Assembly (NCBI GenBank): GCA_052390515.1
Contig: JBQTGV010000077.1
Coordinates: 1-15,650, forward strand
DNA length: 15,650 nucleotides
Origin: Candidatus Eiseniibacteriota bacterium
Lineage (GTDB): Bacteria; ARS69
Direction of reading: 5' to 3'
Shown here: positions 760-14,770 of the stretch, in pieces
Numbering within the stretch: position 1 is the stretch's first letter
How the letters are laid out: each line of letters starts with the position of its first letter
The notes under the pieces: generated by a model
Databases searched by the model: none
Told to the model about the DNA's origin: nothing
Seen by the model: only the letters and a program-made list of their open reading frames with translations
Made by a program: the position numbers and the translations under genes

Positions 760-1881
760 TCAACGCCTCCCGGTGAGGAGCAGGCGCTGCACGCTGAGGC
801 CGAGACCGCCGGCCAGCAGCACGCCCGCGACCACGAACGGCGCCGCGAGGTCCTGGTGGGCGGCGGCCACGAGCCCGCCGAGCAGGGGCAGGGACGAGCT
901 GCCCGCGCCGAGAATCGTCTCGTGCCAGCCTGCGGCGCGTCCACGGCCGGAAGGGCGATCCAGGCTGGCCTGGATCGAGGCCTGGTAGGCGAGCCCGAAC
1001 GCCGCGCCGAGCGGAAGCGCCGCCACGAGGCGGAACGGCGAGCCGACCGCCGCCACGAACAGCGCGAGACCGGCCAGCGCGAACGCGTACGCGGTGAAGA
1101 GCGAGGGCGGCGAGGGACGCCGTCGAGCGAGCAGAGCGAACGTCGCCGTCTGGACGACGAAAACCGAGCCGAGCATGACGCCGAACGCGGTCGGCCCGGC
1201 GCCACGGTCCAGCAGCAGCCGCGGGGCGTGCATGTTGAGCGTGCTGGCCGTGCCGAAGGCGAGCGCGTTGGTGATCCACGCCAGCGGAAGGAACGCGGGC
1301 GAGTGGGCGTGTGCGCCAGGCGGCGGCGCGTGCGCAGGGACCGTGGCGGGCTCCGAGCGCGGCAGCACCGCGAAGGTGAGCAGCGGCGGCAGCGCTGCGA
1401 CGAGCAACGCGACTTCCGGGCGAAGGGCCTCGGTCAGCAGGCCCCCGAGGACGAGACCCGTCCCTTTCCCGAGGCTCCAGGATATGTTGAACGCGGCGAC
1501 GGCTCGCGGGAGAGACTCCACCGGGCATCGATCGGAGACGGCCGCCTGGAGCGGCGACCAGAAGAACCCGAGCGCGGCACCGAGCAGCGGCAGCGACGCG
1601 TAGAGGGCGGCCGACCCCGGCGCGAGAGCGAGAGCGAGGCACCCCGCGGAAAAGAGCAGGAGCGCGCGGCGCGCCAGCACCAGCCTCGGAACGCGGTCCG
1701 ACAGACGTCCACCGAAGCTCGCCGAGAACATGTAGGCGCCGGCGTAGAGCGTCGGTAGGATGCCCAGCTGCGCGGGTCCGGCCCCGAGGTCGATCGCCCG
1801 GAACGGAAGCGCGGCGAAAGCGAGATACAGGGAGGCGTCGGTGAGGAACGCGGCGGCGAGCAGGCGGGGGACGCCGGGCAT
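760..1881 (-). CDS. MFS transporter (~373 aa)
   Basis: C-terminal part of ORF 760..2514, starting MPGVPRLLAAAFLTD. Many hydrophobic helices, MFS motif A (GGRLSDRVPR) and a Pro/Ala central loop between the two halves. The start is supported by a -10 box 6 nt upstream. Confidence 0.9.
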   Translation of the reverse strand: MPGVPRLLAAAFLTDASLYLAFAALPFRAIDLGAGPAQLGILPTLYAGAYMFSASFGGRLSDRVPRLVLARRALLLFSAGCLALALAPGSAALYASLPLLGAALGFFWSPLQAAVSDRCPVESLPRAVAAFNISWSLGKGTGLVLGGLLTEALRPEVALLVAALPPLLTFAVLPRSEPATVPAHAPPPGAHAHSPAFLPLAWITNALAFGTASTLNMHAPRLLLDRGAGPTAFGVMLGSVFVVQTATFALLARRRPSPPSLFTAYAFALAGLALFVAAVGSPFRLVAALPLGAAFGLAYQASIQASLDRPSGRGRAAGWHETILGAGSSSLPLLGGLVAAAHQDLAAPFVVAGVLLAGGLGLSVQRLLLTGRR

Positions 1882-3442
1882 GATCGCATCGTATCGGTGG
1901 GCGGCTGCAGGAGCAATCGCGGTCGTGCTGGCGGCCGCGGCGGCCCCGGCAGCCGGATCCGACGAGACGCTCGCCCGGGTGCGAAAGGCCGTCTCCTCGG
2001 GGCGCGATCCGGCTCTGCTGGCCGCGCACGCCTCCGCCGCGACGGTGCACATGGCCGGCCAGGAAGTCGGGCGCGTGGAGACGCTCGCGCAGCGGAGCCC
2101 GCGCGCGCTCCGCGAGCTCTCCGAGATCGCCGGGGTCCGCCAGGTGGTCACCCTGCTCGGCGACGACGGCTGGCTCGAGGACACGAACGGCACCATCCGC
2201 GAGCTGACCGGCGACGAGCTCTCCGGCGCGCGGATGGCGCACTCCCTTCTCTTCCACTCGTACCTGGACGGCTCCGACGCCGAGTTGCTCGTGGAGGTCG
2301 AGGGCGGCGTCGTCACCCTCCGGCCACGCGACGGCACCGGCGAGGCCCACCTCACGATCGGCGAGGGCTCTCTTCCGGTCGCGTTCGAGCGCACGATGTC
2401 GGGCACGCTCGCGCGAACGACGTTCTCCGACTGGCGGCCGTCCGCGGGAGTGTTGTGGCCGTTCGCCTCCACGCAGACCACCGGCGATCCGCGCTTCGAC
2501 CTGACCCTCCTCACCGTCGAGGTCGACTATCCCCAGGCGCTGCCGGCGGGCGCCATCCCGACGCCAACCGCCGGTCCGGCCCGCGACTTCGTGGTGTCGG
2601 ACCCGGACTCTGCCGCCGCCATCGTCTTCGAGCTCGAGGGCTCGCTGATCGTCCTGCCGGCGCGGGTCGGTGATCGGCCGGGGCGGTTCCTGCTCGACAC
2701 CGGGGCCGGCGCGACCGTCCTCGATGCGGCGTTCTGCGAGGTCCTCGGTCTCGAGCCGCGCGGGGCGATGGAGGCGCGCGGGGCCGGCGGCAGCCAGACG
2801 GCCCGCTTCGTCGACGTGGAAAGCTTCCATCTCCCGGGAATCGAGATGTCCGGGCAGACGGTCGTGACGGTTCCGCTCGACGAAGTGGGTCGCGCGCTCG
2901 GCACGCAGGTGGACGGGATCCTCGGGTACGACTTCCTCAGCCGTTTCGCCGTCGAGATCGACTACCCGGCGAAGCGCCTGGCGCTGTTCCGCTCCGGAAG
3001 CTACTCGCCCCGCGACGGCGCAATCCGGGTTCCGCTGCGCATCGAGACGAATGTGCCCCGGCTCGACGGCGTGCTGGAGGGCGAGCATGCGGGGAGCTTC
3101 GTGCTGGACACCGGGAACGCGTATCCCCTGCTGCTGCACGCTCCGTTCGTCCGCCGCAACGGGCTGGCCGAGGCCGGCGGCGAAGACCTCTCGATCACCG
3201 GAGTGGGAGGCGCCGAGGCCATGACGCGGACCCAGGTGGATTCGCTCGCTCTCGGCGATGCGGTGTTCCGGAGCGTCCCCGCCCTGCTGGCCACTTCCGA
3301 GTCCGGGGCCATCGCGCTGGAGGAGTCGATCGGCAACGTCGGCGGGGCGTTGTTCCTCGACTCCGTGCTGGCCTTCGATTACGGCGCCGGTTCGCTCTGG
3401 CTGGCGCGCGCGGCGAGAGCCGACTCCGCCTCCGCCCGGTAG
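1880..3442 (+). CDS. Secreted aspartyl protease with two retropepsin-like domains and an N-terminal LolA-like/beta-rich domain (~520 aa)
   Basis: Signal-peptide-like N-terminus MIASYRWAAAGAIAVVLAAAAAPA with GGGGGA upstream. Two catalytic motifs, FLLDTGA (D at 2696) and FVLDTGN (D at 3107), each followed by a psi-loop motif (DGILGYDFL; GNVGGALF). TTFSDWRPSAGVLWPF resembles LolA-like sorting-protein folds. Confidence 0.88.
   Translation: MIASYRWAAAGAIAVVLAAAAAPAAGSDETLARVRKAVSSGRDPALLAAHASAATVHMAGQEVGRVETLAQRSPRALRELSEIAGVRQVVTLLGDDGWLEDTNGTIRELTGDELSGARMAHSLLFHSYLDGSDAELLVEVEGGVVTLRPRDGTGEAHLTIGEGSLPVAFERTMSGTLARTTFSDWRPSAGVLWPFASTQTTGDPRFDLTLLTVEVDYPQALPAGAIPTPTAGPARDFVVSDPDSAAAIVFELEGSLIVLPARVGDRPGRFLLDTGAGATVLDAAFCEVLGLEPRGAMEARGAGGSQTARFVDVESFHLPGIEMSGQTVVTVPLDEVGRALGTQVDGILGYDFLSRFAVEIDYPAKRLALFRSGSYSPRDGAIRVPLRIETNVPRLDGVLEGEHAGSFVLDTGNAYPLLLHAPFVRRNGLAEAGGEDLSITGVGGAEAMTRTQVDSLALGDAVFRSVPALLATSESGAIALEESIGNVGGALFLDSVLAFDYGAGSLWLARAARADSASAR
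1888..1916 (-). promoter_or_regulatory. Putative sigma70-type leaderless promoter for the MFS gene
   Basis: Minus strand reads TTGCTC(1916-1911)-N17-TACGAT(1893-1888)-N6-ATG(1881), with no SD before the ATG. Confidence 0.6.
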
Positions 3443-4716
3443 CGGTCTTCCGGGGCGTCGCGGGTGGCGCGCTCCAACTCTCTCTGCGCCTCGTCGTGCC
3501 GGCCCAGAGCGCTCAACGCGATCGCCAGGAGATAGCGATCCGTCGCCGCACCCTCGTCGTCCCGGTGCGCGGCCAGCGCGGCCTGCAGGTGCTCCGCCGC
3601 CCCGGCCGGGTCCCCGGCGCGCAGCCTCGCGGTGCCGTAAGTGCCGCGGACAAAAGGGTCTTCCGGCGCCAGCTCCAGTGCTTCTCGAGCCACGCGCTCG
3701 GCCTCCGCACGGTCCCGGTAGGTCTCGGGCGCCTCCTCCAGCAGGATCCAGGCGAGGTTGTTGCGCGACTCGAAGTCGCGCGGATCGAGCTCCGCGAGCC
3801 GCCGGAAGTCGGCGATCGCCCCGGGCCAATCCTCGGCTTCCACGCGGATCCGCCCGCGGACGTGCAGGAGGTCCCGCTGGTCGGGCGCTTCGGCGAGCCG
3901 CTCCTCCACGAGCTCGAGCGCGGCGTCCCGCTCCATCGCGGCGATGGCGTCGTAGTGCCAGGCGTCGAGGCGCGGACCGTCCGGACCCCGCGTCCGGAAG
4001 ATGCTCTCGAAGGCGCCCGCGAAGGAAACGACCAGCAGCGCGGTGCACACGGCCGGGAGGATCCTCGTGACCGCCGCGTCGCCGACCCCCAGGATCGGCA
4101 GCAGGGAACGCGGGGCCAGGAACAGGGCGACGACCGCGCCGCCGGCGAGCCCGCCGAGGTGCGCGTTCATGTCGATCCGCGGCGCGAGCAGCCCGAGCGC
4201 GAGGTTGACTCCCAGCCAGGGAAGCAGCGCGGGGCCCATGATCTTCGCCACGCGTGCCGGCAGGACTCCGCGGAAGCGGAAGGCGAAGACGATGGAACCG
4301 CCGAGCAGACCGAAGATCGCGCCTGAGGCGCCGACCGAGATCCGCTCGGCGAGCGCGTCGCTCGCCAGGGACCCGGCGATCCCGGACACGAGGTAGAGGA
4401 AAAGGAGTCGCCACGGCCCGTAAAACGCCTCGAGGTTCCCGCCCAGGAGGTAGAGCGCGTACGCGTTGACGAGCAGGTGCAGCTCGTTCGCGTGCAGGAA
4501 CGTGGAGGCGAGGAGCCGCCAGATCTCCCCGGCCTCGACGAAGGCACGGGCGTTCGCGCCGAAGGCCACGAGCACGTCGGTGCGCTCCGGACCTCCGGCG
4601 ATGCGGCTCATCACGAAATACACGAAGATGGCGACGAGCAGGAAGAGGGTCGCACGGGGTGGGAACAGCGCGATCGTACGGACGGGCGGAGGTGCTGCGA
4701 GCTCGGTCCGGTTCAG
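3379..4716 (-). CDS. Rhomboid intramembrane serine protease with C-terminal TPR repeats (~445 aa; probable CTG start)
   Basis: GEIWRLLASTFLH (WR motif), HLLVN, catalytic GASG and AHLGG. The C-terminus has TPR-like helices (RGRIRVEAEDWPGAIADFRRLAELDP; NNLAWIL). The start position is inferred (see findings). Confidence 0.9.
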   Translation of the reverse strand: MNRTELAAPPPVRTIALFPPRATLFLLVAIFVYFVMSRIAGGPERTDVLVAFGANARAFVEAGEIWRLLASTFLHANELHLLVNAYALYLLGGNLEAFYGPWRLLFLYLVSGIAGSLASDALAERISVGASGAIFGLLGGSIVFAFRFRGVLPARVAKIMGPALLPWLGVNLALGLLAPRIDMNAHLGGLAGGAVVALFLAPRSLLPILGVGDAAVTRILPAVCTALLVVSFAGAFESIFRTRGPDGPRLDAWHYDAIAAMERDAALELVEERLAEAPDQRDLLHVRGRIRVEAEDWPGAIADFRRLAELDPRDFESRNNLAWILLEEAPETYRDRAEAERVAREALELAPEDPFVRGTYGTARLRAGDPAGAAEHLQAALAAHRDDEGAATDRYLLAIALSALGRHDEAQRELERATRDAPEDRYRAEAESALAARASQSEPAP

Positions 4717-5225
4717 GCTTCTTCCTCGAGACGGGATCCCGCAGCGGAGACCGCCGGCGGCTCTTCGTGCGGGGTCAGCGCCGTCACGTGCCGCTTGCCG
4801 ACCAGAACGGGACCCGCCTTCGTCTCCACCGCGAAGAAGTCCTCCGGGAAGTTCAGGAAGTCCGAGACGCGCGAGAACTCGTCGGGGAGATCCATGGCGA
4901 TTCGCCCGTCGAGCTCGATCCCCTGCCCGGTGCGCAGCGACACCCGCTCCCGCCGGAACACCGGCGTGCTCTCCTTGCGGATGAGCGCGGGCGAGACACC
5001 ATCGGCCGGCTCGACCAGCACCACCCGGGTGCGGTTCACCACCTGGACTCCGCCGTCGGTCTCGATCGGGAACCAGGGGCTGTCGTTGTTGAACAAGTCG
5101 AGGATGGCCTGCTCGCCGCGGTGGATGGGATCGATGTAGTCGAGGAACACCCGCCCCTCGAGCCGCTCGCCCCCGGACAGCCGCAGCCGGACCGGGACTT
5201 TTCGCTTGGGAATGACGTGGCTCAC
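4713..5225 (-). CDS. Small protein of two tandem Sm/Hfq-like repeats (DUF6812-like, tentative; 170 aa)
   Basis: C-terminal end of ORF 4713..7052 from GTG 5225, preceded by a G-rich tract. Internal duplication: KVPVRLRLSGGERLEGRVFL...ILDLFNNDSPWFPIETDGGVQVVNRTRVVLVEP versus RERVSLRTGQGIELDGRIAM...VSDFLNFPEDFFAVETKAGPVLVGKRHVTALTP. Confidence 0.8.
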   Translation of the reverse strand: MSHVIPKRKVPVRLRLSGGERLEGRVFLDYIDPIHRGEQAILDLFNNDSPWFPIETDGGVQVVNRTRVVLVEPADGVSPALIRKESTPVFRRERVSLRTGQGIELDGRIAMDLPDEFSRVSDFLNFPEDFFAVETKAGPVLVGKRHVTALTPHEEPPAVSAAGSRLEEEA

Positions 5226-5366
5226 GCCGGCCCCCCCGAGTTTCGCTCTCCAAAGATCGTCAATCCGGGGCGAAAGTCGAGGGGAAACTTGGAAATCCTG
5301 ACCGCGGGACTTCACCGCCCGCCCCGACGTGCCGATCCCCGACCAGAACTCCTTACGGGCGGCGAC

Positions 5367-6542
5367 ATGGCGCGAATCGACGCGATCTTCGAGGCGGTCC
5401 AGGCTCAGGGCGCCTCGGACCTGCACATCTCCACGGGCGCTCCGCCGATGATCCGCCGCCACGGGGAAATGCATCCCGTTCCCTACCAGGAGCTGACCCC
5501 CGAGCTCACCGAGATGCTGCTCTACGAGATGATGGGCGAGCGGGAGCGCGCCATCTTCGAGCAGCGCAAGGACGTCGACTTCAGCTACGAGGTCTCCGGC
5601 CGGTTCCGGGTGCGCTGCAACGTGTACGAGGAGCGCCGGGGGCTGGCCGGGGCGTTCCGCCTGCTGCCCACGTCGATTCTCACGCTGGAGCAGCTCGGAC
5701 TGCCGCCGCATCTCTCCGAGCTGAGCCGTGCCGAGAAGGGGATCGTCCTCGTCACCGGACCGCCGGGTTCCGGGAAGTCGACGACGCTCGCGGCGCTGAT
5801 CGATCACGTGAACAACCGCGTGCGCCGTCACATCATCACCATCGAGGATCCCATCGAGTACGTGCACCAGAACCGCAAGTGCCTGGTGAACCAGCGCGAG
5901 GTCGGCAGCCACACGCCCAGCTTCGCCGCCGCACTGCGCGCCGCCCTGCGCGAGGACCCCGACATCATCCTGGTGGGCGAGATCCGCGACTACGAGTCCA
6001 TGAGCCTGGCGCTCACCGCGTCGCAGACCGGGCAGCTCGTGCTCGGCACGCTGCACACCACCAGCGCCGCGGAGACGGTGGAGCGCATGATCGACACGTT
6101 CCCCGCGGACGAGCAGTCGCAGGCGCGGGGGATGCTGGCCACGTCGCTGCGCGCGGTCATCGCCCAGCGGCTGATGCGTCGGGCGGACGACAAGGGACGC
6201 GTCGCGGCAGTGGAGATCCTGCTGGGCTCGCCGGCCGTCGCCGCACTGATCCGCGAGAAGAAGCACTACCAGATCCCCTCGGTGATGCAGACCAGCCGTC
6301 GCGACGGGATGCAGCTCCTCGAGGACTCCATCCGGGACCTGCTCGCGCGCGGCATCGTGAGCGCGGAGGAGGCCCAGCGGTACTCGACGGCACCGCCTTC
6401 GATCCGGGCGGCGGCCGCGGCCGCACCTCCACCGGCATCGCCGCCGTCGGCGCCCGGCGTGCCCGAGCGCGCGCCCGCCGCGGGGCAGCCTTCCGCTGCG
6501 AGACCCGCGTCCCGGGCCAACATCAACCGACCGGTGCGCTAG
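5367..6542 (+). CDS. pilT: Type IV pilus retraction ATPase, PilT/PilU family (391 aa)
   Basis: ASDLHISTGAPP N-domain, Walker A GPPGSGKSTT, Asp box ITIEDPIE, Walker B ALREDPDIILVGEIRD, His box LGTLHT, AIRNLIRE-like AVAALIRE and GMQ, plus a Pro/Ala-rich C-terminal tail. Confidence 0.93.
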   Translation: MARIDAIFEAVQAQGASDLHISTGAPPMIRRHGEMHPVPYQELTPELTEMLLYEMMGERERAIFEQRKDVDFSYEVSGRFRVRCNVYEERRGLAGAFRLLPTSILTLEQLGLPPHLSELSRAEKGIVLVTGPPGSGKSTTLAALIDHVNNRVRRHIITIEDPIEYVHQNRKCLVNQREVGSHTPSFAAALRAALREDPDIILVGEIRDYESMSLALTASQTGQLVLGTLHTTSAAETVERMIDTFPADEQSQARGMLATSLRAVIAQRLMRRADDKGRVAAVEILLGSPAVAALIREKKHYQIPSVMQTSRRDGMQLLEDSIRDLLARGIVSAEEAQRYSTAPPSIRAAAAAAPPPASPPSAPGVPERAPAAGQPSAARPASRANINRPVR

Positions 6543-6551
6543 GAAGCCCCC

Positions 6552-7886
6552 GTGCAGATCTCCGGCAACACCGCAGTCCTCCCCCTCTTCGATCTCGTGC
6601 AGATGCTGTCGGTCAACGAGGCGACCGGCATGCTCAAGGTCGAGAACCACACCGAGCGCGGGTATCTCTACCTGCAGCAAGGCCGCGTCATCAACGCGCT
6701 GGACGGCGACCATCGCGACGGCGAGGACGCCGCGAAGCGGGTCTTCGCGCTGCGCGATGCGCAGTACTCGTTCTCGCTCGAGCTGCCCAGCGTCGCCGAA
6801 CGTATCCAGTGCTCGACGCAGAACCTCATGATGGAGGTCGCCCGGCAGCTGGACGAGGAGGGTATCGGTGTCGACGGCGGTACGTCGCCGACCGACCGCG
6901 TGCGCGAGGTGCAGCAAGCCACCGACGCCCTGCACCGCATCTTCCGGGAGCTGGATACCGACTCGCGGATCCTCTCCCTGCGCGCGAACCTCGGAGTGAC
7001 CATCGCAGACCTGCTCGCGCCGCTGCGCGCCACCGCCGGTGCGGTGCTGCACCTGCGGGAGGGAGCGCTGCCCGAGACCCGGGACGGCGTGCGCATGTCA
7101 CCGGTGGGCTCGACGCCGCTCGACCGGCGAGGCTACCAGGAGGTACGCGATCTCCTGCTGCGCGGGGCAACGGCGCTGGGCCCGGTCGGCGGTGAGGTGG
7201 ACGCGTACCGTCTCTCTCTCGGCCCGAACGAGCGCTATCGGGTGGAGCGGATCCGCTGGACGGCGGGCGAGATGATCACGGTGCGGTTCGCGCCGGACGA
7301 GGCGGAGCTCGTCGCCGCGCTCCCCTGGCCGGCGGCGACGCTGACCGAGCTGCTGCGCGCTCCGGGGGCCGTCGTGCTGGTGACCGCGCCGGAGTACCCG
7401 GATGCGGCGGGCGGATTCGCCGCCGCCTGCGCCCACTTCCTGAGCTCCGAGACCGGACCGGTGATCGCATTCGCGCGACGCTGGACGCCGTCCACGCGCC
7501 GCGCCGGAGCGATCCTGCTGTCGACGTTGCTCCAGCACGACCGCGCGGAGGGGATGCGCCTCGTCGACAGGCTCGCCCCCTCGCTCGTCGCCGTGGAGGA
7601 CGCCGACTGCCGCCCGGCGCTCGCCGCCGCGCTGCGCGCCCTTCGCGCGGGATCGAGAGCGCTCATCGGGGTGTGCGCGCCGGCCCCCGCTCACGTGCTG
7701 GAGCGGATCCTGGACGGCGTCTCGCCCGCGGAACGGGCCTCCTGGCTCGCGCTCCTGGGCGGCGGACTGGGTGCAGTGCTCACCGCCGGCGGCGACATCT
7801 TGCCGGTGGACGGGAGCGCCCGGTCCGCGGTTCTCGCCGGTGACGCCGGCCCCCTCATGGCCGCGCTGGTGCACGGAGCCGGCTGA
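6552..7886 (+). CDS. DUF4388/PATAN-like domain fused to a degenerate (P-loop-less) PilT-like domain (444 aa)
   Basis: N-terminal ISGNTAVLPLFDLVQMLSVNEATGMLKV...GYLYLQQGRVINA...STQNLMMEVARQLDE matches the DUF4388 pattern. Residues ~150-444 align colinearly by eye with the upstream PilT but lack the Walker A/B, Asp and His boxes. GTG start 9 nt after the pilT stop, with AGGAAG upstream. Confidence 0.85.
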   Translation: MQISGNTAVLPLFDLVQMLSVNEATGMLKVENHTERGYLYLQQGRVINALDGDHRDGEDAAKRVFALRDAQYSFSLELPSVAERIQCSTQNLMMEVARQLDEEGIGVDGGTSPTDRVREVQQATDALHRIFRELDTDSRILSLRANLGVTIADLLAPLRATAGAVLHLREGALPETRDGVRMSPVGSTPLDRRGYQEVRDLLLRGATALGPVGGEVDAYRLSLGPNERYRVERIRWTAGEMITVRFAPDEAELVAALPWPAATLTELLRAPGAVVLVTAPEYPDAAGGFAAACAHFLSSETGPVIAFARRWTPSTRRAGAILLSTLLQHDRAEGMRLVDRLAPSLVAVEDADCRPALAAALRALRAGSRALIGVCAPAPAHVLERILDGVSPAERASWLALLGGGLGAVLTAGGDILPVDGSARSAVLAGDAGPLMAALVHGAG

Positions 7887-7911
7887 CCGGAACGCGCCGT
7901 TCGCGTACGAT
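7883..7911 (+). promoter_or_regulatory. Putative sigma70-type leaderless promoter for the HD gene
   Basis: CTGACC(7883-7888)-N17-TACGAT(7906-7911)-N6-ATG(7918), with no SD. Confidence 0.6.
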
Positions 7912-7917
7912 CCGCGC

Positions 7918-8490
7918 ATGTCCGTCCCGACGCGCGCCGAGGCCTGGGCCATCCTCACCGAATTCACGCAAAGCAATGCGCTGCGCAAGCACGCGCTCGC
8001 GGTCGAGGCCGGGATGCGCGCCTACGCCGCGAAGCTCGGCGGCGATCCGGAGGTCTGGGGGGTCGTCGGTCTGCTGCACGACTTCGATTACGAGCGCCAC
8101 CCGTCGCTGGAGGAGCATCCGTTCCGTGGTGCCGAGATCCTCGCGCAGCGCGGCGTGGACGAGAGCGTCCGCACCGCCATCCTCTCGCACGGGGACCACA
8201 CCGGCGTGCCGCGGGACGATCCCATGAAGAAGGCACTCTTCGCCGTCGACGAGCTCAGCGGGTTCCTGACCGCGTGCGCGCTCGTCCGTCCCTCGAAGAA
8301 GATCGCCGAGGTCCCGGTCGACTCGGTGAAGAAGAAGCTGAAGGACAAGGCGTTCGCACGAACCGTGAACCGCGACGACGTGCGCCGCGGAGCCGAGGAG
8401 CTGGGCGTCGCGCTCGACGAGCACATCGCGTTCGTCCGCGACGCGATGGCGGGCGTCGCCCGCGAGTTGGGGCTCGACGGCGGAGGCTGA
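7918..8490 (+). CDS. HD-superfamily (HDIG/COG2316-like) metal-dependent hydrolase (190 aa)
   Basis: MSVPTRAEAW..., LRKHALAVEA, GLLHDFDYE (HD motif), AILSH, LFAVDELSG and KKKLKDKAFA, all typical of this conserved family. Confidence 0.92.
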   Translation: MSVPTRAEAWAILTEFTQSNALRKHALAVEAGMRAYAAKLGGDPEVWGVVGLLHDFDYERHPSLEEHPFRGAEILAQRGVDESVRTAILSHGDHTGVPRDDPMKKALFAVDELSGFLTACALVRPSKKIAEVPVDSVKKKLKDKAFARTVNRDDVRRGAEELGVALDEHIAFVRDAMAGVARELGLDGGG

Positions 8491-8505
8491 GCGGGAGGAC
8501 TCGTG

Positions 8506-8665
8506 AGCGCTCCGTCCGGGAAGAAGTTTCTCTGACGGCCTCGCTCAAGCCCGCTCGCCGCCTGGCTCGCTCGCATCGTTGCCGCCGGCCTCCGCCGTCC
8601 GTGGCTCCGGCTGCGGCGGCTACGACGCGAGACCGTCAGAGAAACTCATTCCCAGACGGAACACT
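8506..8665. repeat. MITE/REP-like non-autonomous element with 39-bp imperfect terminal inverted repeats
   Basis: 8506-8544 matches the reverse complement of 8627-8665 at 33/39 positions. A second internal IR (8571-8587 / 8614-8630) matches at 15/17. The element lies between convergent genes and encodes no transposase. Confidence 0.75.
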
Positions 8666-10556
8666 ACTCCGCTCCGCCCCGCGCACGCCGGAGCAGCCGC
8701 TGCGCGCGCTCGTCCGCCGGAGCGATCTCCAGCGCCCGGAGCGCGCTGCGCTCGGCGGACGCAGAGTCACCGAGGGATAGGGCGAGCCGCCCGAGGTGGA
8801 CGATGGGGCTCGCGTAGCCGGGATCCCTCGCGGCCGAGGCGACGAAGAGCGATTCCGCGGCCGCCGCCTCGCCGAGGTTCATCGCGCAGAGCCCGGCGTT
8901 GTTCAACGCCTCCGCTGCCAGGACCTCGTCCTCCGCGGCCATGGCCACGAAGATCTCCTTCGCCGCCGCGAAGTCGCCGGCCTGGAACAGCCGGTTCGCC
9001 TCGGCCAGTCCCTGCGCGCGTGCTCCCGCCGGCCCCGCCCCGAGCGCGGCGGCGCGCGCCGCCTCCTCGGCCGCCTCGCGCACGCGGCCCATCCGGCCGA
9101 GCACTTCGGCGAGCTTGCTGCGGCTCGGCGGCCAGGCCGGATCGATGGCGATCGAGCGGCGCAGGAGCTCCTCCGCCTCGGCCAGCTCGCCCGCGTCCGC
9201 GGCCAGCGTGCCGAAGTTGTAGTGGTCGACGCGCATGGAGTGCAGCCGGCGCAGGAACTCGTCGCGCCAGTTCACGCCCACGAACGCGCCGGCCAGGACC
9301 GCCCCCGCCAGCACCTGGCGTGACAGCGGACCGGCGCGGAGGATCCGCGTGGCACGCCCCGCCCCGACCGCGGCGAACAGCAGCAGGCTCGGCACGACCG
9401 GGTGGCGGTACTCCGACGACACGTAGAACGCGACGCAGGTCACGAGCGACACCGCCACGGGGATGGCCGGAACGAGCAGGCGCCGAAGATCCAGCAGCCC
9501 GAACACGGCGAACGGCAGCACCCACCCGAGGTGGACACGGAGAACCGCGAGCACCGGCGAATGCTCCATCGCGAAGTAGTACGAGAGGTTCGTCTGCGAC
9601 TCGGTCGCGCTGGCGAAGAAGCGCAGCTTGCGCAGCGCGAGCCGCAGGGCCCCGGCCGGTTCCTCCCGCCAGCGCCGCCACGTCTCGCCCGTCCAGAACG
9701 AGCTGGCCTGCGCCAGCGTGAGCTCTCTCCCGGCCCGCCGCGACGCCTCCGCGCGGTAGTCCTCGGCCTCGGACTCCGGTACCGGATTCGAGAGGAACGC
9801 GGGCTCGGAGTAGATCCCGGTCGCGCGCTCGTGGTTCCCGGCCCACAGCGCCATGCCTCCGTTCGCGCTGACCGGGACGAGCTCGCCGGACTCGCGCCAG
9901 TTGCGCACGGTCACGGGCAGGACGACGAGCGCGGCCGACAGGAAGCAGAGCGCGACCGGCGCCGCCGCGCCCTTGCCCCGGCGGAGCAACACCGCGGCGT
10001 AGGCAGGCAAGAGCAGCGCGTTGTTCGCCCGCCCGAGCACGAGAAGCCCGATCACGACGCCGAGCCCGGCGGCGGCACGCAGCCTTCCCGGCCCCGCGTC
10101 CAGCGCGAGGAGAACGGTCACCAGCGTCAGCGCCAGCAGAAGGCTCGGAGTGAGCAGCGCCCCGTCGTAGAAGATGGCCGGGCCGTACACCAGGAGCCCC
10201 ACCGCGGCGATGAGCCCCTCGCGCGGGCGACCGAGCCGATCGCCGAGCCTGGCGAGCAGCACGACGCTCGCCGCTCCCGCCAGCGACTGCAGCACGAGCG
10301 CAGCCAGCCGCCCGCCATCGCCGGCGCCGAAAGCCGAGTACACGGCGCCGAGGAACGCCCCGTAGAGCACGTTCATGAAGAACGGGCCGTCGGGGAAGCC
10401 GGCGCCCTCGGCGAGGCGCCGCCCGACGCCGTCGTAGAAGGCGGAGTCGATCAGCAGGTAACGGAAGAGCGGACCGTCGCGCAGCGCGGCGACGTGCAGC
10501 AGGCGGACCGCGAGCGCGCCGGCGAGGAGGAGGAGGTCGCGGCGCGTGCGGGTCAT
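8664..10556 (-). CDS. GT-C fold glycosyltransferase (ArnT/PMT_2/GT39-like) with C-terminal TPR repeats (630 aa)
   Basis: ATG at 10556 overlaps the upstream stop (ATGA) with a GAGGA SD. LIDSAFYD acidic loop after TM1, many TM helices, VTVRNW, NGGMALWAGN, SEYRHP, then TPRs (HYNFGTLA...LRRSIAIDP; ALNNAGLCAM). Confidence 0.85.
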   Translation of the reverse strand: MTRTRRDLLLLAGALAVRLLHVAALRDGPLFRYLLIDSAFYDGVGRRLAEGAGFPDGPFFMNVLYGAFLGAVYSAFGAGDGGRLAALVLQSLAGAASVVLLARLGDRLGRPREGLIAAVGLLVYGPAIFYDGALLTPSLLLALTLVTVLLALDAGPGRLRAAAGLGVVIGLLVLGRANNALLLPAYAAVLLRRGKGAAAPVALCFLSAALVVLPVTVRNWRESGELVPVSANGGMALWAGNHERATGIYSEPAFLSNPVPESEAEDYRAEASRRAGRELTLAQASSFWTGETWRRWREEPAGALRLALRKLRFFASATESQTNLSYYFAMEHSPVLAVLRVHLGWVLPFAVFGLLDLRRLLVPAIPVAVSLVTCVAFYVSSEYRHPVVPSLLLFAAVGAGRATRILRAGPLSRQVLAGAVLAGAFVGVNWRDEFLRRLHSMRVDHYNFGTLAADAGELAEAEELLRRSIAIDPAWPPSRSKLAEVLGRMGRVREAAEEAARAAALGAGPAGARAQGLAEANRLFQAGDFAAAKEIFVAMAAEDEVLAAEALNNAGLCAMNLGEAAAAESLFVASAARDPGYASPIVHLGRLALSLGDSASAERSALRALEIAPADERAQRLLRRARGGAE

Positions 10557-12619
10557 TCCTCGGCCCCGGCCAGCGCGAACACGTGCGTCAGCACGAGCGG
10601 TGCGCTGCCCGCTGCCTCCTCGACGAGCCGGATCCGGACGCGCGCCGCGCCGCGTCCCGGCGGGATCGCCGCCACCTGCTGCTCGTGGAAGAAGCCGCCG
10701 CCTGGCCCGTAGATCTCGACGGGCTGCTCGGCACCTCCGTCCACGGAGACGAGCGTTCGCTGGCGGATGCCTCCGGGCGTACGCGCCACCACGTTCACCG
10801 GCGACATCGGGTCCCGCGCGAGATCGAACTGGACCTCGCCGAAGACGGACCGCCCCGCGTCGATGATCTCGTCTCCGACGACTCCCGCGAAGGTCGCGCG
10901 GCGCACGAAGCTGCCGGCGTCCGCGCCGCGCTCGCCGTTCCGCCAAGTGAAGCGGTGCGCGCGCTCCGACGCCGGGTCCGCCACGTCCACCCGGTCCACG
11001 AGGCGCGCCGCCGGGCCACCCAGGCGGGGCCGGTCGCCCGACCCGGCGAGCGTCCAGTCGAACGTGGCCAGCACCTTCTCGGCGTCCACGATCGACGGCG
11101 CGAGCAGCCGCACGCTGCCGATGCGCCGGATCACGCCCAGGTCGTCGAACTCGAACCAGTTCGGGAAGAAGCAGAACCATCCGGGTCGATCCCGCGGCGG
11201 CCGCGCCTCGAGGCTCTCCCACAGGACGCCCGACCCCTGCGGCCACAAGCCGGCCATGCCCGGCGTCGTCAGGCCGATCAGGTCCAGCGTGCGACGCCCC
11301 GAGAAGTAGGCGATCGCGCCGGCGTCGTTGATGGCCACCACGGCATCCGGCGGGAGCGTCTCCGCGATCGTCTCGCCGAAACAGATCTGCATTCGGTCGA
11401 TGTCCTGGCAGTTGTCGCCGAAGGCGGCGGCGAAGAACACCACGGACACGGAGGCCGTCGCGACGAGCCAGCCGCGAGCGCCCGCGGCGATCGGTTCGCC
11501 GATGCGGCGCACTCCGACCGCCGTCCAGATCAGGAACACGGGGAGGATCGGCATCTGGTAGCGACTGAAGTGCGCATCGGGCTCCTCCAGTGCCGCCGTG
11601 GACACGAGGAGCGCGGCGACCCACGTCAACGCGACGAGTGCTGTCGCGGGCTTCCGCTCGCGCCACTCCCGCGCCGCCTCGGGCAGCACACCGATCAGGA
11701 AGAGGATCCCCGCGCCGGGCGGCACCCAGAGCGCCGCGCCCTCCGACTCGTAGGCGTAGAGCCCGCGTCCGTCCGCGAAGGGCGCGAGGCCGCCGAAGAG
11801 CGCGGCCGCCAGGCTGGCGGCGCGCAGCAGCGCGACGCGCAGCACGTCGAGGAGCGTCGCGCCGGGAACCGAGAAGAGCGTCTTCGCCAGGAGACCGCTG
11901 GAGCGCGCGTCCCCCGTCAGGGCCAGGTTCACGAGCGGCTGCACGAGCGAGGCGGCGAAGGGGAGCGCCGCCCAGGCGAGCCCGGCGCGCGCTTCGCGGT
12001 CGAGCAGCGCGCGCGCGACCCACAGCGCTGCGAGGGCGACGGCGAGCAGCGCACCCTCGGGCCGCGCGGTGGCCATCGTCGCCGCGGCGAGCGCCGCGCG
12101 TGCCGCCGGCCGTCCGCCCGACCGCACGAGCTCCGCGAACGCCCACGCGACCGTCGCCGAGAAGTACGCGATCTCCATGCCGCTCCACGCGCCCCAGTGC
12201 AGCGGGCCGGAGAGCAGGACGAGGATCGCGGCGAGCGGCATCACGCGCGGACCGGGGGGCGCGCCTTCGCCCGCCGTCCCGGCGAGCCCGGCCCCCGCCG
12301 CCCCGGCGAAGCGCACGCACGCCGCCAGGGCCACGCCCCCGAGGATCATCGCGAAGAAGATCATCGCCTTGCCGTCGAAGCCGAGCAGGGACCCGAGGCC
12401 GAGCAGGATCATCCACGGGAGGCTCGTCGTTCCCGTGGTGGGGGCCTCGCCGGGCTGGTATACGAACGGCTGGCCGGCGGCCGCCTGCCGCGCGTACTGG
12501 AAGTAGATGAACGAGTCGTCGAGCGGAAGGGACGGTCTGCCCCCGGTCGCGCGGAGCATGCACGCCAGGTAGACGACGCCGACGGCGAAGACGAGGAGGA
12601 GCGATCGCCGGAACGTCAC
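10553..12619 (-). CDS. Polytopic membrane protein, GT-C-type glycosyltransferase-like, with soluble C-terminal domain (688 aa)
   Basis: GTG overlaps the NUDIX stop (GTGA). LDDSFIYFQYA di-acidic motif after TM1, GTTSLPW, SGME, ARPEG, RYQMP and DAGAIAYFS..LDLIGL are motifs seen in uncharacterised GT-C-like membrane proteins. Confidence 0.78.
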   Translation of the reverse strand: MTFRRSLLLVFAVGVVYLACMLRATGGRPSLPLDDSFIYFQYARQAAAGQPFVYQPGEAPTTGTTSLPWMILLGLGSLLGFDGKAMIFFAMILGGVALAACVRFAGAAGAGLAGTAGEGAPPGPRVMPLAAILVLLSGPLHWGAWSGMEIAYFSATVAWAFAELVRSGGRPAARAALAAATMATARPEGALLAVALAALWVARALLDREARAGLAWAALPFAASLVQPLVNLALTGDARSSGLLAKTLFSVPGATLLDVLRVALLRAASLAAALFGGLAPFADGRGLYAYESEGAALWVPPGAGILFLIGVLPEAAREWRERKPATALVALTWVAALLVSTAALEEPDAHFSRYQMPILPVFLIWTAVGVRRIGEPIAAGARGWLVATASVSVVFFAAAFGDNCQDIDRMQICFGETIAETLPPDAVVAINDAGAIAYFSGRRTLDLIGLTTPGMAGLWPQGSGVLWESLEARPPRDRPGWFCFFPNWFEFDDLGVIRRIGSVRLLAPSIVDAEKVLATFDWTLAGSGDRPRLGGPAARLVDRVDVADPASERAHRFTWRNGERGADAGSFVRRATFAGVVGDEIIDAGRSVFGEVQFDLARDPMSPVNVVARTPGGIRQRTLVSVDGGAEQPVEIYGPGGGFFHEQQVAAIPPGRGAARVRIRLVEEAAGSAPLVLTHVFALAGAEE

Positions 12620-13143
12620 ACCGCGCGCCCCGCTGCGAGGTAGAGCGCCGTCGCCTGCAACGCGGCGACGCTCTTCGCGTCGCGAACCTCCTCCGTGGGA
12701 ATCCGGGCGAGGACCTCGGAAAGAGGAAGCCTATGCACCTCGATGACCTCGTCGTGCTCGAGCTGCCGCGGCGCGCTCGAGAGACCGCGCGCCAGGTACA
12801 GGTGGATGACCTCGTCGCAGAACCCGGGCGTGGTGAGGATCGACCCGAGCTTCACCCAGCGCTCGGCCGCGAGGCCGGCTTCCTCTTGCAGCTCGCGGCG
12901 CGCGCAATCCAGCGGGTCCTCTCCCGGGCGGTCGAGCTTCCCCGCGGGGACCTCCCAGAGCCAGCCGCCGGCCGCGTGGCGCCACTGCCGCAGCATGGCC
13001 ACCTCGCCGTTCTCGAAGAGCGGGACGCACGCCGCGGCGCCCGGATGGTGCATCACCTCCAGGCGCGTCACCACGCCGTTGGGCAGATGGGCGTCTTCGA
13101 TGGCCAGGTTGACCACGCGCCCTTCGTAGATTTTCTCGATCAA
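12616..13143 (-). CDS. nudF: NUDIX hydrolase, ADP-ribose pyrophosphatase-like (175 aa)
   Basis: TTG start at 13143 (MIEKIYEGRVVNL), HPGAA, LRQWR, Nudix box GKLDRPGEDPLDCARRELQEEAG, TPGFCDE and DAKS. Confidence 0.88.
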   Translation of the reverse strand: MIEKIYEGRVVNLAIEDAHLPNGVVTRLEVMHHPGAAACVPLFENGEVAMLRQWRHAAGGWLWEVPAGKLDRPGEDPLDCARRELQEEAGLAAERWVKLGSILTTPGFCDEVIHLYLARGLSSAPRQLEHDEVIEVHRLPLSEVLARIPTEEVRDAKSVAALQATALYLAAGRAV

Positions 13144-13213
13144 GCAGCCCCCGTCTGCGCGTGAAGGCGCCCCGGATCCCGGCGAAGGCGGGACGACGCC
13201 CCCGTTCGCTCGG

Positions 13214-13242
13214 TTGACGCGAGGCAACCGGGTCTCTAAAAT
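13214..13242 (+). promoter_or_regulatory. Near-consensus sigma70 promoter for the lipoprotein operon, with overlapping palindromic operator candidate
   Basis: TTGACG(13214-13219)-N17-TAAAAT(13237-13242). Dyad CGGTTG-N8-CAACCG at 13211-13230. Confidence 0.75.
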
Positions 13243-13306
13243 GGAGGCCGTCACGGACCAGCCCCCGGTCCGAACCGCGCTCGCGCCCCCTTGCTCAAGG
13301 AATTCC

Positions 13307-14770
13307 ATGATTCGGAACAGGTTGCAAGTCTTCCCGAGTCTCGCCGGAATGGTTCTGTCGGTCGGCCTCGCCGCCTGCGGGGGTGACTCCGGCTCCGGAC
13401 CAGGGCCCATCGAGCAGCCGGTCTTCCGCGACGTGCAGGCGGTGATGACTCCGAACTGCAACACCGCGTCCTGCCACAACAGCTCCTTCCGGGCGGCCGG
13501 GCTGGCGCTCGAGACCCACGCCCAGGTCGCGGAAGGCAGCCGTTACGGGGCGACGATCGTCCCGTTCCACCCGGAGCGCAGCCACTTCTGGAGGCACCTG
13601 ACCGGCGAGACGACGCCGCTGATGCCGCTCGGCCGGGATCCCCTGTCCCCTCGAGACATGGACGTGATCCGCAAGTGGATCGAGCAGGGCGCCGTCGACG
13701 ACTCCCGCACGCCGATGTACGCGGGCGCAACCCGCAAGGGATTCGTGGCCTGTCAGGGCGAGAACGTCGTGGCCGTCATCGACCTGGATACGGGGCTGAC
13801 CATCCGCCACATCGACGTGGACGCACCGCACTCCGTGCTGGTGGATACGTCCACGCGACGGCTCTACGTCACGCGCTTCGAGACGGCGTCCGACAACATC
13901 CACGTGTACGACGCCGACACGTACGCGCTCGTGACCACGGGACGCGCCGGCACCTTCCCCGCGCTCATGGCCATCGTGAGGCCGGTCGGCCTCGGACCGC
14001 AGCTCTGGGTCACGAACTTCGACACGAGCGGCGGCGACGACGCGGTGCGGATCCTGGATCCGACGTCTCCCACCCTCGCGGAGATCACTTCGATCGAAGT
14101 GGCCGGCGCGACGCAGCCGCACGGCATCGCCGTCAAGGCCGACCAGTCGAAGGTCTACGTCTCGAACATCGGAACCGGGAACGTGACCATCTTCGGAACG
14201 ATGCCGTCCCCGACGTTCGAGGAAGGACCGATCGCCCTGCCCGCCGCAGGCTCAGCTCACCAGCCGCAGCAGTGCGTGCTCTCCAAGGACGAGAACTTCC
14301 TGTTCGTCTCCGCGCTCGGCACGGACGCCGTCTACGTGATGGACACGACGACGCTGCCGCCGAGCTTCATCCCCTCCGCGACGATCCCGACCGGGGACGC
14401 GCCGTGGCACCTCACGCTCTCTCCGGACGGAGCGAGGCTGTGGGTCGCGAACTGGCTGGGAAGCAGCGTCACCGTGGCGAACTGCGTCACGGCGACGAGC
14501 GCCTTCGTGGAGCGGACGCTCACGCCGACCCACCCCGTGGACATCACCCGACCGGCCCTGCAGCGTCCGATCGGCATCACGTTCTCGCCGGACGGCTCGC
14601 GCGTCTTCGTCGCCAGCGCGAACGACGACAACCAGGGCTCGGGACACCATCCGGCGCCGGGAGGCGAGAAGAACCCGGGCAACGTGACCATCCTGGACGC
14701 CCAGACCTATGACGTGCTCTCGGTCGCCGAGGTCCCCAACTTCGCGCGTTTCGTCAGCCTGTTGCCGTGA
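13307..14770 (+). CDS. Lipoprotein: planctomycete-type cytochrome c domain plus YVTN/YncE-type beta-propeller (487 aa)
   Basis: AAGGA SD, lipobox LAAC (Cys24), heme motif CNTASCH (CX4CH), GLAL...IVPFHPERS...LMPLG...IRKWIEQGA (PSCyt1-like), then propeller blades (LYVTRF, LWVTNF, VYVSNI, LFVSAL, LWVANW, VFVASA). Confidence 0.88.
   Translation: MIRNRLQVFPSLAGMVLSVGLAACGGDSGSGPGPIEQPVFRDVQAVMTPNCNTASCHNSSFRAAGLALETHAQVAEGSRYGATIVPFHPERSHFWRHLTGETTPLMPLGRDPLSPRDMDVIRKWIEQGAVDDSRTPMYAGATRKGFVACQGENVVAVIDLDTGLTIRHIDVDAPHSVLVDTSTRRLYVTRFETASDNIHVYDADTYALVTTGRAGTFPALMAIVRPVGLGPQLWVTNFDTSGGDDAVRILDPTSPTLAEITSIEVAGATQPHGIAVKADQSKVYVSNIGTGNVTIFGTMPSPTFEEGPIALPAAGSAHQPQQCVLSKDENFLFVSALGTDAVYVMDTTTLPPSFIPSATIPTGDAPWHLTLSPDGARLWVANWLGSSVTVANCVTATSAFVERTLTPTHPVDITRPALQRPIGITFSPDGSRVFVASANDDNQGSGHHPAPGGEKNPGNVTILDAQTYDVLSVAEVPNFARFVSLLP

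Follow-up and report, generated by a model that had tools for sequence, protein, structure and literature searches.

The PilT fold, in which an N-terminal domain is followed by a RecA-like C-terminal ATPase domain, oligomerises by N-domain-to-C-domain contacts, as in the PilT hexamers, and to our knowledge few direct protein regulators of PilT are known. A precedent for a motor partner with a degenerate ATPase fold is ArlH/FlaH of the archaellum, a RecA/KaiC-like protein with incomplete catalytic motifs which binds and modulates the motor ATPase ArlI/FlaI, and which still binds ATP. PilU, in turn, offers a parallel of a PilT-fold protein that works by way of PilT: it is reported to be dependent on PilT, which bridges PilU to the machine (bioRxiv 10.1101/2025.10.30.685630; PMC6762196; PMC6821130). 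The PatA-type regulators PixE, PixG and LsiR carry an N-terminal PATAN/DUF4388 domain attached to a phosphorylatable receiver (REC) domain. Here we describe a gene that joins a PATAN domain to a degenerate PilT module, and which is encoded directly behind an intact pilT gene. It lies on a 15,650-nt contig from a Candidatus Eiseniibacteriota bacterium (C77; JBQTGV010000077.1 of assembly GCA_052390515.1, which has 4.27 Mb in 223 contigs and is 95% complete). The whole contig, with a G+C content of 72%, was analysed and is referred to below as the window.

With PilT (TIGR01420; structures 5fl3, 6ok2/6okv of PilT4, and 3jvv) the encoded protein shares the N-terminal and RecA-like C-terminal fold, collinear sequence blocks, conserved arginines equivalent to R98, R195 and R240, and an acidic residue at the Walker B catalytic position; unlike PilT, it has no Walker A lysine, Asp box or His box. 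It resembles PilU in being a PilT paralogue encoded directly after pilT, whereas PilU has all its motifs intact, is catalytically active as an ATPase and lacks PATAN. The N-terminal domain is that of the PatA-type regulators, with a dead PilT in the place of their receiver domain. ArlH/FlaH differs in being KaiC-like rather than PilT-like, archaeal, and without PATAN. Full-text literature searches returned no description of a protein fusing PATAN to a PilT-like module, nor of a PilT partner lacking catalytic activity, so the architecture, which belongs within the PilT superfamily and among the PATAN proteins, is apparently undescribed. Because the gene is always found directly behind a PilT gene, the protein is likely to be a partner or regulator of the PilT motor that has not been described before. 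The gene, which we call PATAN-pseudoPilT, its partner and their parts are arranged in the window as follows.

5367–6542, + strand: partner pilT, 391 aa, PilT-type retraction ATPase, stop codon TAG at 6540–6542
6543–6551, + strand: intergenic spacer of 9 nt, with a Shine-Dalgarno-like GGAAG right behind the pilT stop
6552–7886, + strand: PATAN-pseudoPilT gene, GTG start, TGA stop, 444 aa; orthologues cover 99–100% of the query
6564–6860, + strand: PATAN/DUF4388 domain, residues 5–103 (PF14332, 64.2 bits, E 1.4e-17)
6864–6998, + strand: linker, residues 105–149, a predicted disordered stretch and then a long helix at 113–142 (AlphaFold2 (AF2) predicted local distance difference test score (pLDDT) 57–64; helix end 142/144)
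6999–7325, + strand: PilT N-terminal-domain-like module, residues 150–258 (hhalign, residues 151–412 against PilT 4–267; VIA-align)
7326–7883, + strand: PilT C-terminal RecA-like ATPase-domain-like module, residues 259–444, with degenerate catalytic motifs (hhalign, VIA-align)
7386–7412, + strand: former Walker A, APEYPDAAG (residues 279–287), where PilT has GPPGSGKST; no lysine (alignments)
7473–7484, + strand: ARRW (residues 308–311), the same in all 12 of 12 orthologues, where PilT has its Asp box EDPI(E)
7587–7601, + strand: retained Walker-B-like strand VAVED (residues 346–350), with D350 opposite the PilT catalytic Glu
7668–7685, + strand: former His box, GVCAPA (residues 373–378), where PilT has GTLHTT; no histidine (alignments)

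The relationship to PilT is seen at the level of single sequences, profiles and predicted structure. BLASTP aligned residues 151–410 with the neighbouring PilT at 24% identity over 280 columns (E 0.018), and the best match of the single sequence in the Protein Data Bank (PDB) was the PilT structure 5fl3 (E 0.013). With a profile of 12 orthologues, 5fl3 was matched at E 2.8e-14 and the top eight PDB matches were all PilT or PilU, the PilU structure 9n32 being the weaker at E 3.7e-6. Alignment of the orthologue profile with that of six PilT orthologues by hhalign gave a probability of 95.4% and E 1.7e-8 over 259 columns. An AF2 model made from 51 family sequences had a pLDDT of 87.3, with low confidence confined to residues ∼105–150, and its top Foldseek matches were all PilT (E ∼3e-13; 5fl3, E 2.7e-13). 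VIA-align superposed residues 142–444 of the model on residues 0–320 of PilT4 (6ok2_A) with Z 19.9 and a root-mean-square deviation of 3.8 Å over 285 residues, and residues 252–444 on the Aquifex aeolicus PilT C-terminal domain (2eyu_A) with Z 16.4. In the other direction, a hidden Markov model (HMM) of the family's C-terminal module scored 52 of 52 genuine PilTs at 55–197 bits. The 51-sequence family profile had matches at E up to 1e-12 in 359 of 401 sampled genomes; among those listed, the matches outside the family lie at positions ∼140–455, the canonical PilT alignment region. Alignments and model together show a PATAN domain, a predicted helical linker and a complete two-domain PilT fold. 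The sequence-only reading had proposed that residues ∼150–444 track the neighbouring PilT block by block, and had named a comparison with PilT structures as the check; BLASTP returned the same blocks, and the profile, hhalign and structural matches agree with them.

Standard annotation does not pick up this module. TIGR01420 gave 13.4 bits (E 0.032) over residues 151–280 only, below its cut-off of 319.1, and the Pfam family PF00437 (T2SSE; threshold 24.9 bits) had no match to the pseudoPilT at E up to 1, whereas the partner PilT scored 452.2 bits with TIGR01420 and E 1.1e-50 with PF00437. Database names of the family's proteins are ‘hypothetical’ or ‘DUF4388 domain-containing’, and the PilT-like module is currently invisible under them.

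The partner PilT has the complete set of catalytic motifs, namely GPPGSGKST (Walker A), IEDPIE (Asp box), LVGEIRD (Walker B) and TLHT (His box). In the pseudoPilT, the column of the Walker A lysine (K137) holds a lysine in none of 17 close orthologues and in 10 of 38 distant members. The Asp box has become FARRWT, with Ala in the E160 column of all 17 close orthologues and Arg in the D161 column of 16, and the His box has become GVCA, with His in the H230 column of none. The Walker B strand persists as LVAVED: D350, aligned to the catalytic Glu (E205 column), is Asp in 17/17 close orthologues, and E349, aligned to the Gly preceding it (G204 column), is Glu or Asp in 16/17, the Gly-Glu signature and the following Arg-Asp of PilT both being altered. 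The earlier claim that Walker A, Asp box, Walker B and His box had all gone thus stands for three of them and is imprecise for Walker B, where the strand and an invariant Asp remain; its expectation that orthologues would have no intact Walker A was borne out in the 17 close ones. That the N-domain arginines are kept is only partly true, since the equivalent of R98 is present in 17/17 close orthologues, and those of R81, R83 and R30 in 12/17, 11/17 and 9/17, respectively. Canonical ATP binding is not expected of a P-loop NTPase without its P-loop. With the P-loop lysine lost in this clade, along with the Asp and His boxes, neither canonical ATP binding nor hydrolysis is expected of the pseudoPilT, and it would be non-catalytic.

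The PATAN match (residues 5–103, profile positions 2–121 of 122) is well above the PF14332 gathering threshold of 25 bits and reached 67.5 bits in a six-frame scan of the organism's own genome. It is continuous, with no alpha-clip insertion apparent. This is the most conserved part of the protein, residues 1–103 holding 49 of the 89 columns that are invariant among 12 orthologues. When folded alone (pLDDT 80.4) and compared with 48,161 PDB representatives, the domain had a best match of Z 4.3, none reaching Z 5. A Pfam scan found neither a Response_reg match nor any known sensory domain in the protein. The label of ‘sensor’ or ‘signal input’ given to it by the sequence-only reading is therefore not supported; PATAN is an interaction and output domain in a Synechocystis study (bioRxiv 10.1101/2021.06.11.447907). 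As reported there, PATAN alone binds the N-terminal domain of PilB1 and the N-terminus of PilC and suffices for output, the PATAN regulators did not bind PilT1 or PilT2, and PATAN genes are described as neighbours of mglA/mglB homologues.

A pilT gene stands directly upstream in 15 of the 15 loci with upstream DNA, which come from eight genomes of the window's GTDB family, two metagenome contigs and five distant genomes; one further genome (G008), whose orthologue is on a 2,187-nt contig with no upstream DNA, was left out of the count. The window itself, where the sequence-only reading had placed the gene directly behind an intact PilT, has 9 nt between the two genes (TAG-GAAGCCCCC-GTG), with the Shine-Dalgarno-like word abutting the stop codon. 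In the loci of the window's family the spacers are 9–18 nt long and carry GGAG-like words, and in the distant loci the two genes overlap, with stop and start codons sharing bases in ATGA, GTGA or TGATG. The upstream PilTs of the five distant loci are 55–61% identical to the window's PilT, and the rest of the neighbourhood is unrelated there, with genes for an HtrA-like protease, an ECF sigma factor, a P-type ATPase, a type I restriction subunit and a transglutaminase-like protein.

The assembly's GTDB phylum comprises 12 species genomes in a single family, nine of which have an orthologue. The gene is missing from G002 (96% complete), G003 (100%) and G006 (92%), and in these the best PilT is only 41–49% identical to the window's PilT, compared with 71–74% in the carriers. 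The level of 41–49% is also that at which the six other PilT paralogues of the window's genome resemble the partner PilT. In a maximum-likelihood tree of 52 PilTs, the 12 partner PilTs fall on one side of a branch with an SH-like approximate likelihood-ratio test (SH-aLRT) support of 99, and each of the six other paralogues groups with paralogues of the non-carrier genomes. A frameshifted PilT (G005), the two metagenome contigs and any high-scoring segment pair shorter than 280 aa were left out of this tree. Taken together, the comparisons show that the gene is co-inherited and co-lost with one distinct PilT subfamily and, judging by the junctions, translationally coupled to it. The functional linkage to PilT suggested earlier is in this way strongly supported by synteny, by the partner clade and by joint absence from three genomes.

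An additional feature of the junction was seen in six of seven loci of the window's family (window 6540–6554, L011, L013, L014, L015 and L018), where the TAG stop of pilT is in frame with the PATAN-pseudoPilT start, three to six codons before it. Read-through of this single stop would fuse the two proteins; in the five distant loci the stop is TGA and in a different frame. A simpler reason may be that the TAG forms part of a Shine-Dalgarno word resembling TAGGAG. The partner PilT also has an Ala/Pro-rich, low-complexity tail of ∼45 residues (window 6400–6539), which differs in sequence and length between orthologues (total lengths 375–391 aa).

An exhaustive search of representative proteins brought up 621 matches with E up to 1e-3, among them 87 with E up to 1e-10; many of the matches share PATAN alone. 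Among 159 family matches, 56 match the C-module HMM at E < 1e-3 and 25 match the PilT HMM. All of 103 matches with lengths of 395–520 aa have DUF4388, 11 have T2SSE (E up to 0.01) and five have REC. A further protein search with the family alignment added only four members. The wider family is graded: distant members P0104, P0128, P0130 and P0132 have a GK[ST] P-loop, others (P0117, P0138, P0157 and P0160) have the variants GKA or GKP, and some of those that keep a P-loop also retain acidic residues at the Asp-box and Walker B positions. The complete PilT motif set was found in none of the 49 full-length members tabulated. Outside the window's GTDB family, a profile search of 401 genomes found full-length members in three further families, represented by five genomes (G070 and G233; G077; G240 and G386). 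The nearest Atlas cluster is mostly Candidatus Eiseniibacteriota, and the named metagenome-assembled genome records in which the orthologues occur carry the label Gemmatimonadota or ‘bacterium’, their taxonomy being loosely known.

The gene is maintained under purifying selection. The reading frame is full-length and open in orthologues that are just 42–47% identical, among 12 of which 89 columns are invariant, and the G+C content at third codon positions (GC3), 0.90 in the frame of the 6552–7886 ORF, marks that frame as coding. The ratio of nonsynonymous to synonymous substitution (omega, dN/dS; NG86 method) was informative for one genome pair only, G007/G010, for which it is 0.12 over the whole gene (dN 0.052, dS 0.442), close to the 0.10 of the adjacent PilT. 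By region, omega is 0.015 for PATAN, 0.22 for the linker, 0.09 for the N-domain-like (N2D-like) module and 0.15 for the C-domain-like module. A metagenome scan with the single protein found no closer DNA for this calculation, and one with a five-sequence alignment found two partial loci only. A ∼96% identical relative in metagenomic DNA has no indels over 6830–7534, and of the seven in-gene differences among those listed five are at third codon positions, which is too thin to use. No RNA run containing the locus was found. The sequence-only reading had taken the gene for a maintained pseudo-ATPase rather than a decaying pseudogene, and the open frame, the omega of 0.12 and the Walker A lysine in 0/17 close orthologues agree with it.

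On balance we favour, with confidence a little better than even, a maintained non-catalytic PilT-derived protein that acts together with the PilT paralogue encoded upstream of it. Since the PilT fold oligomerises and PilU works through PilT, the dead module would most likely join the partner PilT ring, through its PilT-fold oligomerisation surfaces, either as a stacked ring, comparable to PilU with its dependence on PilT, or by intercalating as a subunit. PATAN may dock on another motor component, such as the N-terminus of PilB or of PilC, by analogy with the cyanobacterial PatA-type regulators. As the Synechocystis work has PATAN binding PilB1 and PilC and not PilT1 or PilT2 (bioRxiv 10.1101/2021.06.11.447907), the protein may be an adaptor that ties the partner PilT to the pilus platform or gates it there. 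Where the active site used to be, the invariant ARRW and the ED pair may lock the domain in one conformation. The effect on the motor may be activation, braking or localisation.

Several observations weigh against such a partnership. In Synechocystis the regulators bound PilB1 and PilC rather than PilT1 or PilT2, so that PATAN need not touch PilT. A complex prediction with PilT residues 1–350 (46-row alignment) and the full protein (12-row alignment), run without controls, scored 0.01 and speaks neither for nor against binding. The pseudoPilT evolves faster than its partner, with 43–45% identity against 71–74% for the partner PilT across the family (∼45% and ∼72% across the phylum). The pseudoC HMM had a median score of 34.8 for partner PilTs and 40.0 for other PilTs, giving no signal of co-evolved likeness or of recent tandem duplication; the latter, considered as an origin of the gene from its partner, was rejected because partner PilTs are not favoured by the HMM scores. 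The PilT tree was a quick one with a midpoint root, the very feature under test had been used to delimit its groups, and it held only 22 outside PilTs. The low omega comes from one close pair; other pairs gave 0.52–0.77 with saturated dS, and with the strong GC3 bias as well these values are unreliable and not readable as relaxed selection. Finally, the G005 orthologue has a frame break near residue 66–70, and its adjacent pilT is broken too, near residue 285. That genome (loci L007/L017) is a 73%-complete assembly of 20 contigs, and the breaks are either assembly error or joint decay.

Some of the same evidence could be read in other ways. The loss of the catalytic motifs from a fold that is complete over the region aligned to PilT residues 0–320, together with the binding of PATAN to the PilC N-terminus and PilB1 in Synechocystis (bioRxiv 10.1101/2021.06.11.447907), would suit a decoy or brake, in which the dead module fills the docking site of PilT (or PilB) on PilC or PilM and blocks retraction or extension, PATAN strengthens the docking, and binding to PilT is unnecessary. 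A general decoy would, however, have no need to be strictly paired with one PilT subfamily, translationally coupled to it and lost along with it, and in a genome with seven PilT-type and two PilB/GspE-type ATPases its specificity would still have to be explained; we consider it unlikely. The invariant basic and acidic residues, which stand exactly at the former Asp-box and Walker B positions, suggest instead a ligand receptor, whose remodelled pocket (ARRW and ED) would bind a nucleotide or second messenger and relay the signal to the partner PilT. Distant members P0104, P0130, P0132 and L078, which keep a GGKS or GSGKS P-loop with acidic residues at those positions, fit this idea, as does an HDIG phosphohydrolase gene downstream in the window's family. 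Yet the P-loop lysine is present in 0/17 close orthologues, the HDIG gene is not kept as a neighbour in the five distant loci, and Pfam and NCBIfam scans matched no known second-messenger-binding family; a receptor, drawn purely from conserved residues, seems rather improbable.

The pair might also work outside type IV pilus retraction, for example in another PilT-driven machine or in polarity control, with PATAN linking to small-GTPase polarity modules. In none of the loci examined is it close to other pilus genes, a separate pilB–pilT cluster is present on contig C133, and PATAN genes near mglA/mglB homologues are mentioned in the Synechocystis report (bioRxiv 10.1101/2021.06.11.447907). On the other hand, the partner is well above the PilT/PilU family cut-off and 55–65% identical to proteins annotated as PilT in public data, which hold many PilTs at 58–65%, and no alternative machine is encoded nearby, which makes a role of this kind quite improbable. 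Least credible of all, to a degree that leaves it hardly worth entertaining, is a decaying pseudogene or a chance ORF. Lost catalytic motifs, one frameshifted orthologue and the frequency of spurious long ORFs in a window of 72% G+C would allow for it, but it is opposed by the GC3 of 0.90, the omega of 0.12, the AF2 pLDDT of 87.3, the 89 invariant columns despite 42–47% identity, and conservation across four GTDB families.

The favoured reading, a dead PilT module working with the PilT encoded before it, makes the protein a testable candidate PilT regulator, with a motor-docking domain, under selection, and translationally coupled to one PilT subfamily across four or more GTDB families. It would exemplify a pseudo-enzyme partner in the secretion-ATPase superfamily. 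A wider proposal, which we regard as possible but doubtful, is that such proteins form a scattered class of pseudo-ATPases, each in an obligate heteromer (a stacked or mixed ring) with a dedicated PilT subfamily and physically linked by PATAN to the extension side of the machine (PilB or PilC). If true, the heteromer would have a switch built into it, mechanical or allosteric, by which the pilus changes between extension and retraction.

Gene order over window positions 760–13479 is largely conserved across the family, at 42–75% protein identity: a major facilitator superfamily (MFS) transporter, a double retropepsin-like protease, a rhomboid-TPR protein, pilT, PATAN-pseudoPilT, an HDIG protein, a PMT_2-TPR glycosyltransferase-like protein, a 688-aa protein and a NUDIX protein. 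One genome (G001) has an insertion of ∼3 kb ahead of the HDIG gene. The HDIG gene (7918–8490) was considered as a third member of the module and rejected, being conserved within the window's family only and not in the five distant loci. No sigma-54-type promoter was found before pilT, the sole consensus match in the window (9310–9325) being at chance level. The double retropepsin-like protein (1760–3442, + strand) has 560 aa with two Asp_protease_2 stretches and is 46–50% identical in relatives. The 688-aa ORF (10553–12619, − strand) has a GC3 of 0.91 and orthologues that are 53–55% identical, with no Pfam or NCBIfam match, and a protein at 13214–14770 (+ strand) has both a cytochrome c domain of the planctomycete type and a beta-propeller of the lactonase type. 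The genome as a whole encodes the seven PilT-type and two PilB/GspE-type ATPases and four DUF4388 proteins, with C30, C133, C42, C213, C149 and C136 among the contigs concerned; C30 carries two PilT genes in tandem and C133 a PilB–PilT pair.

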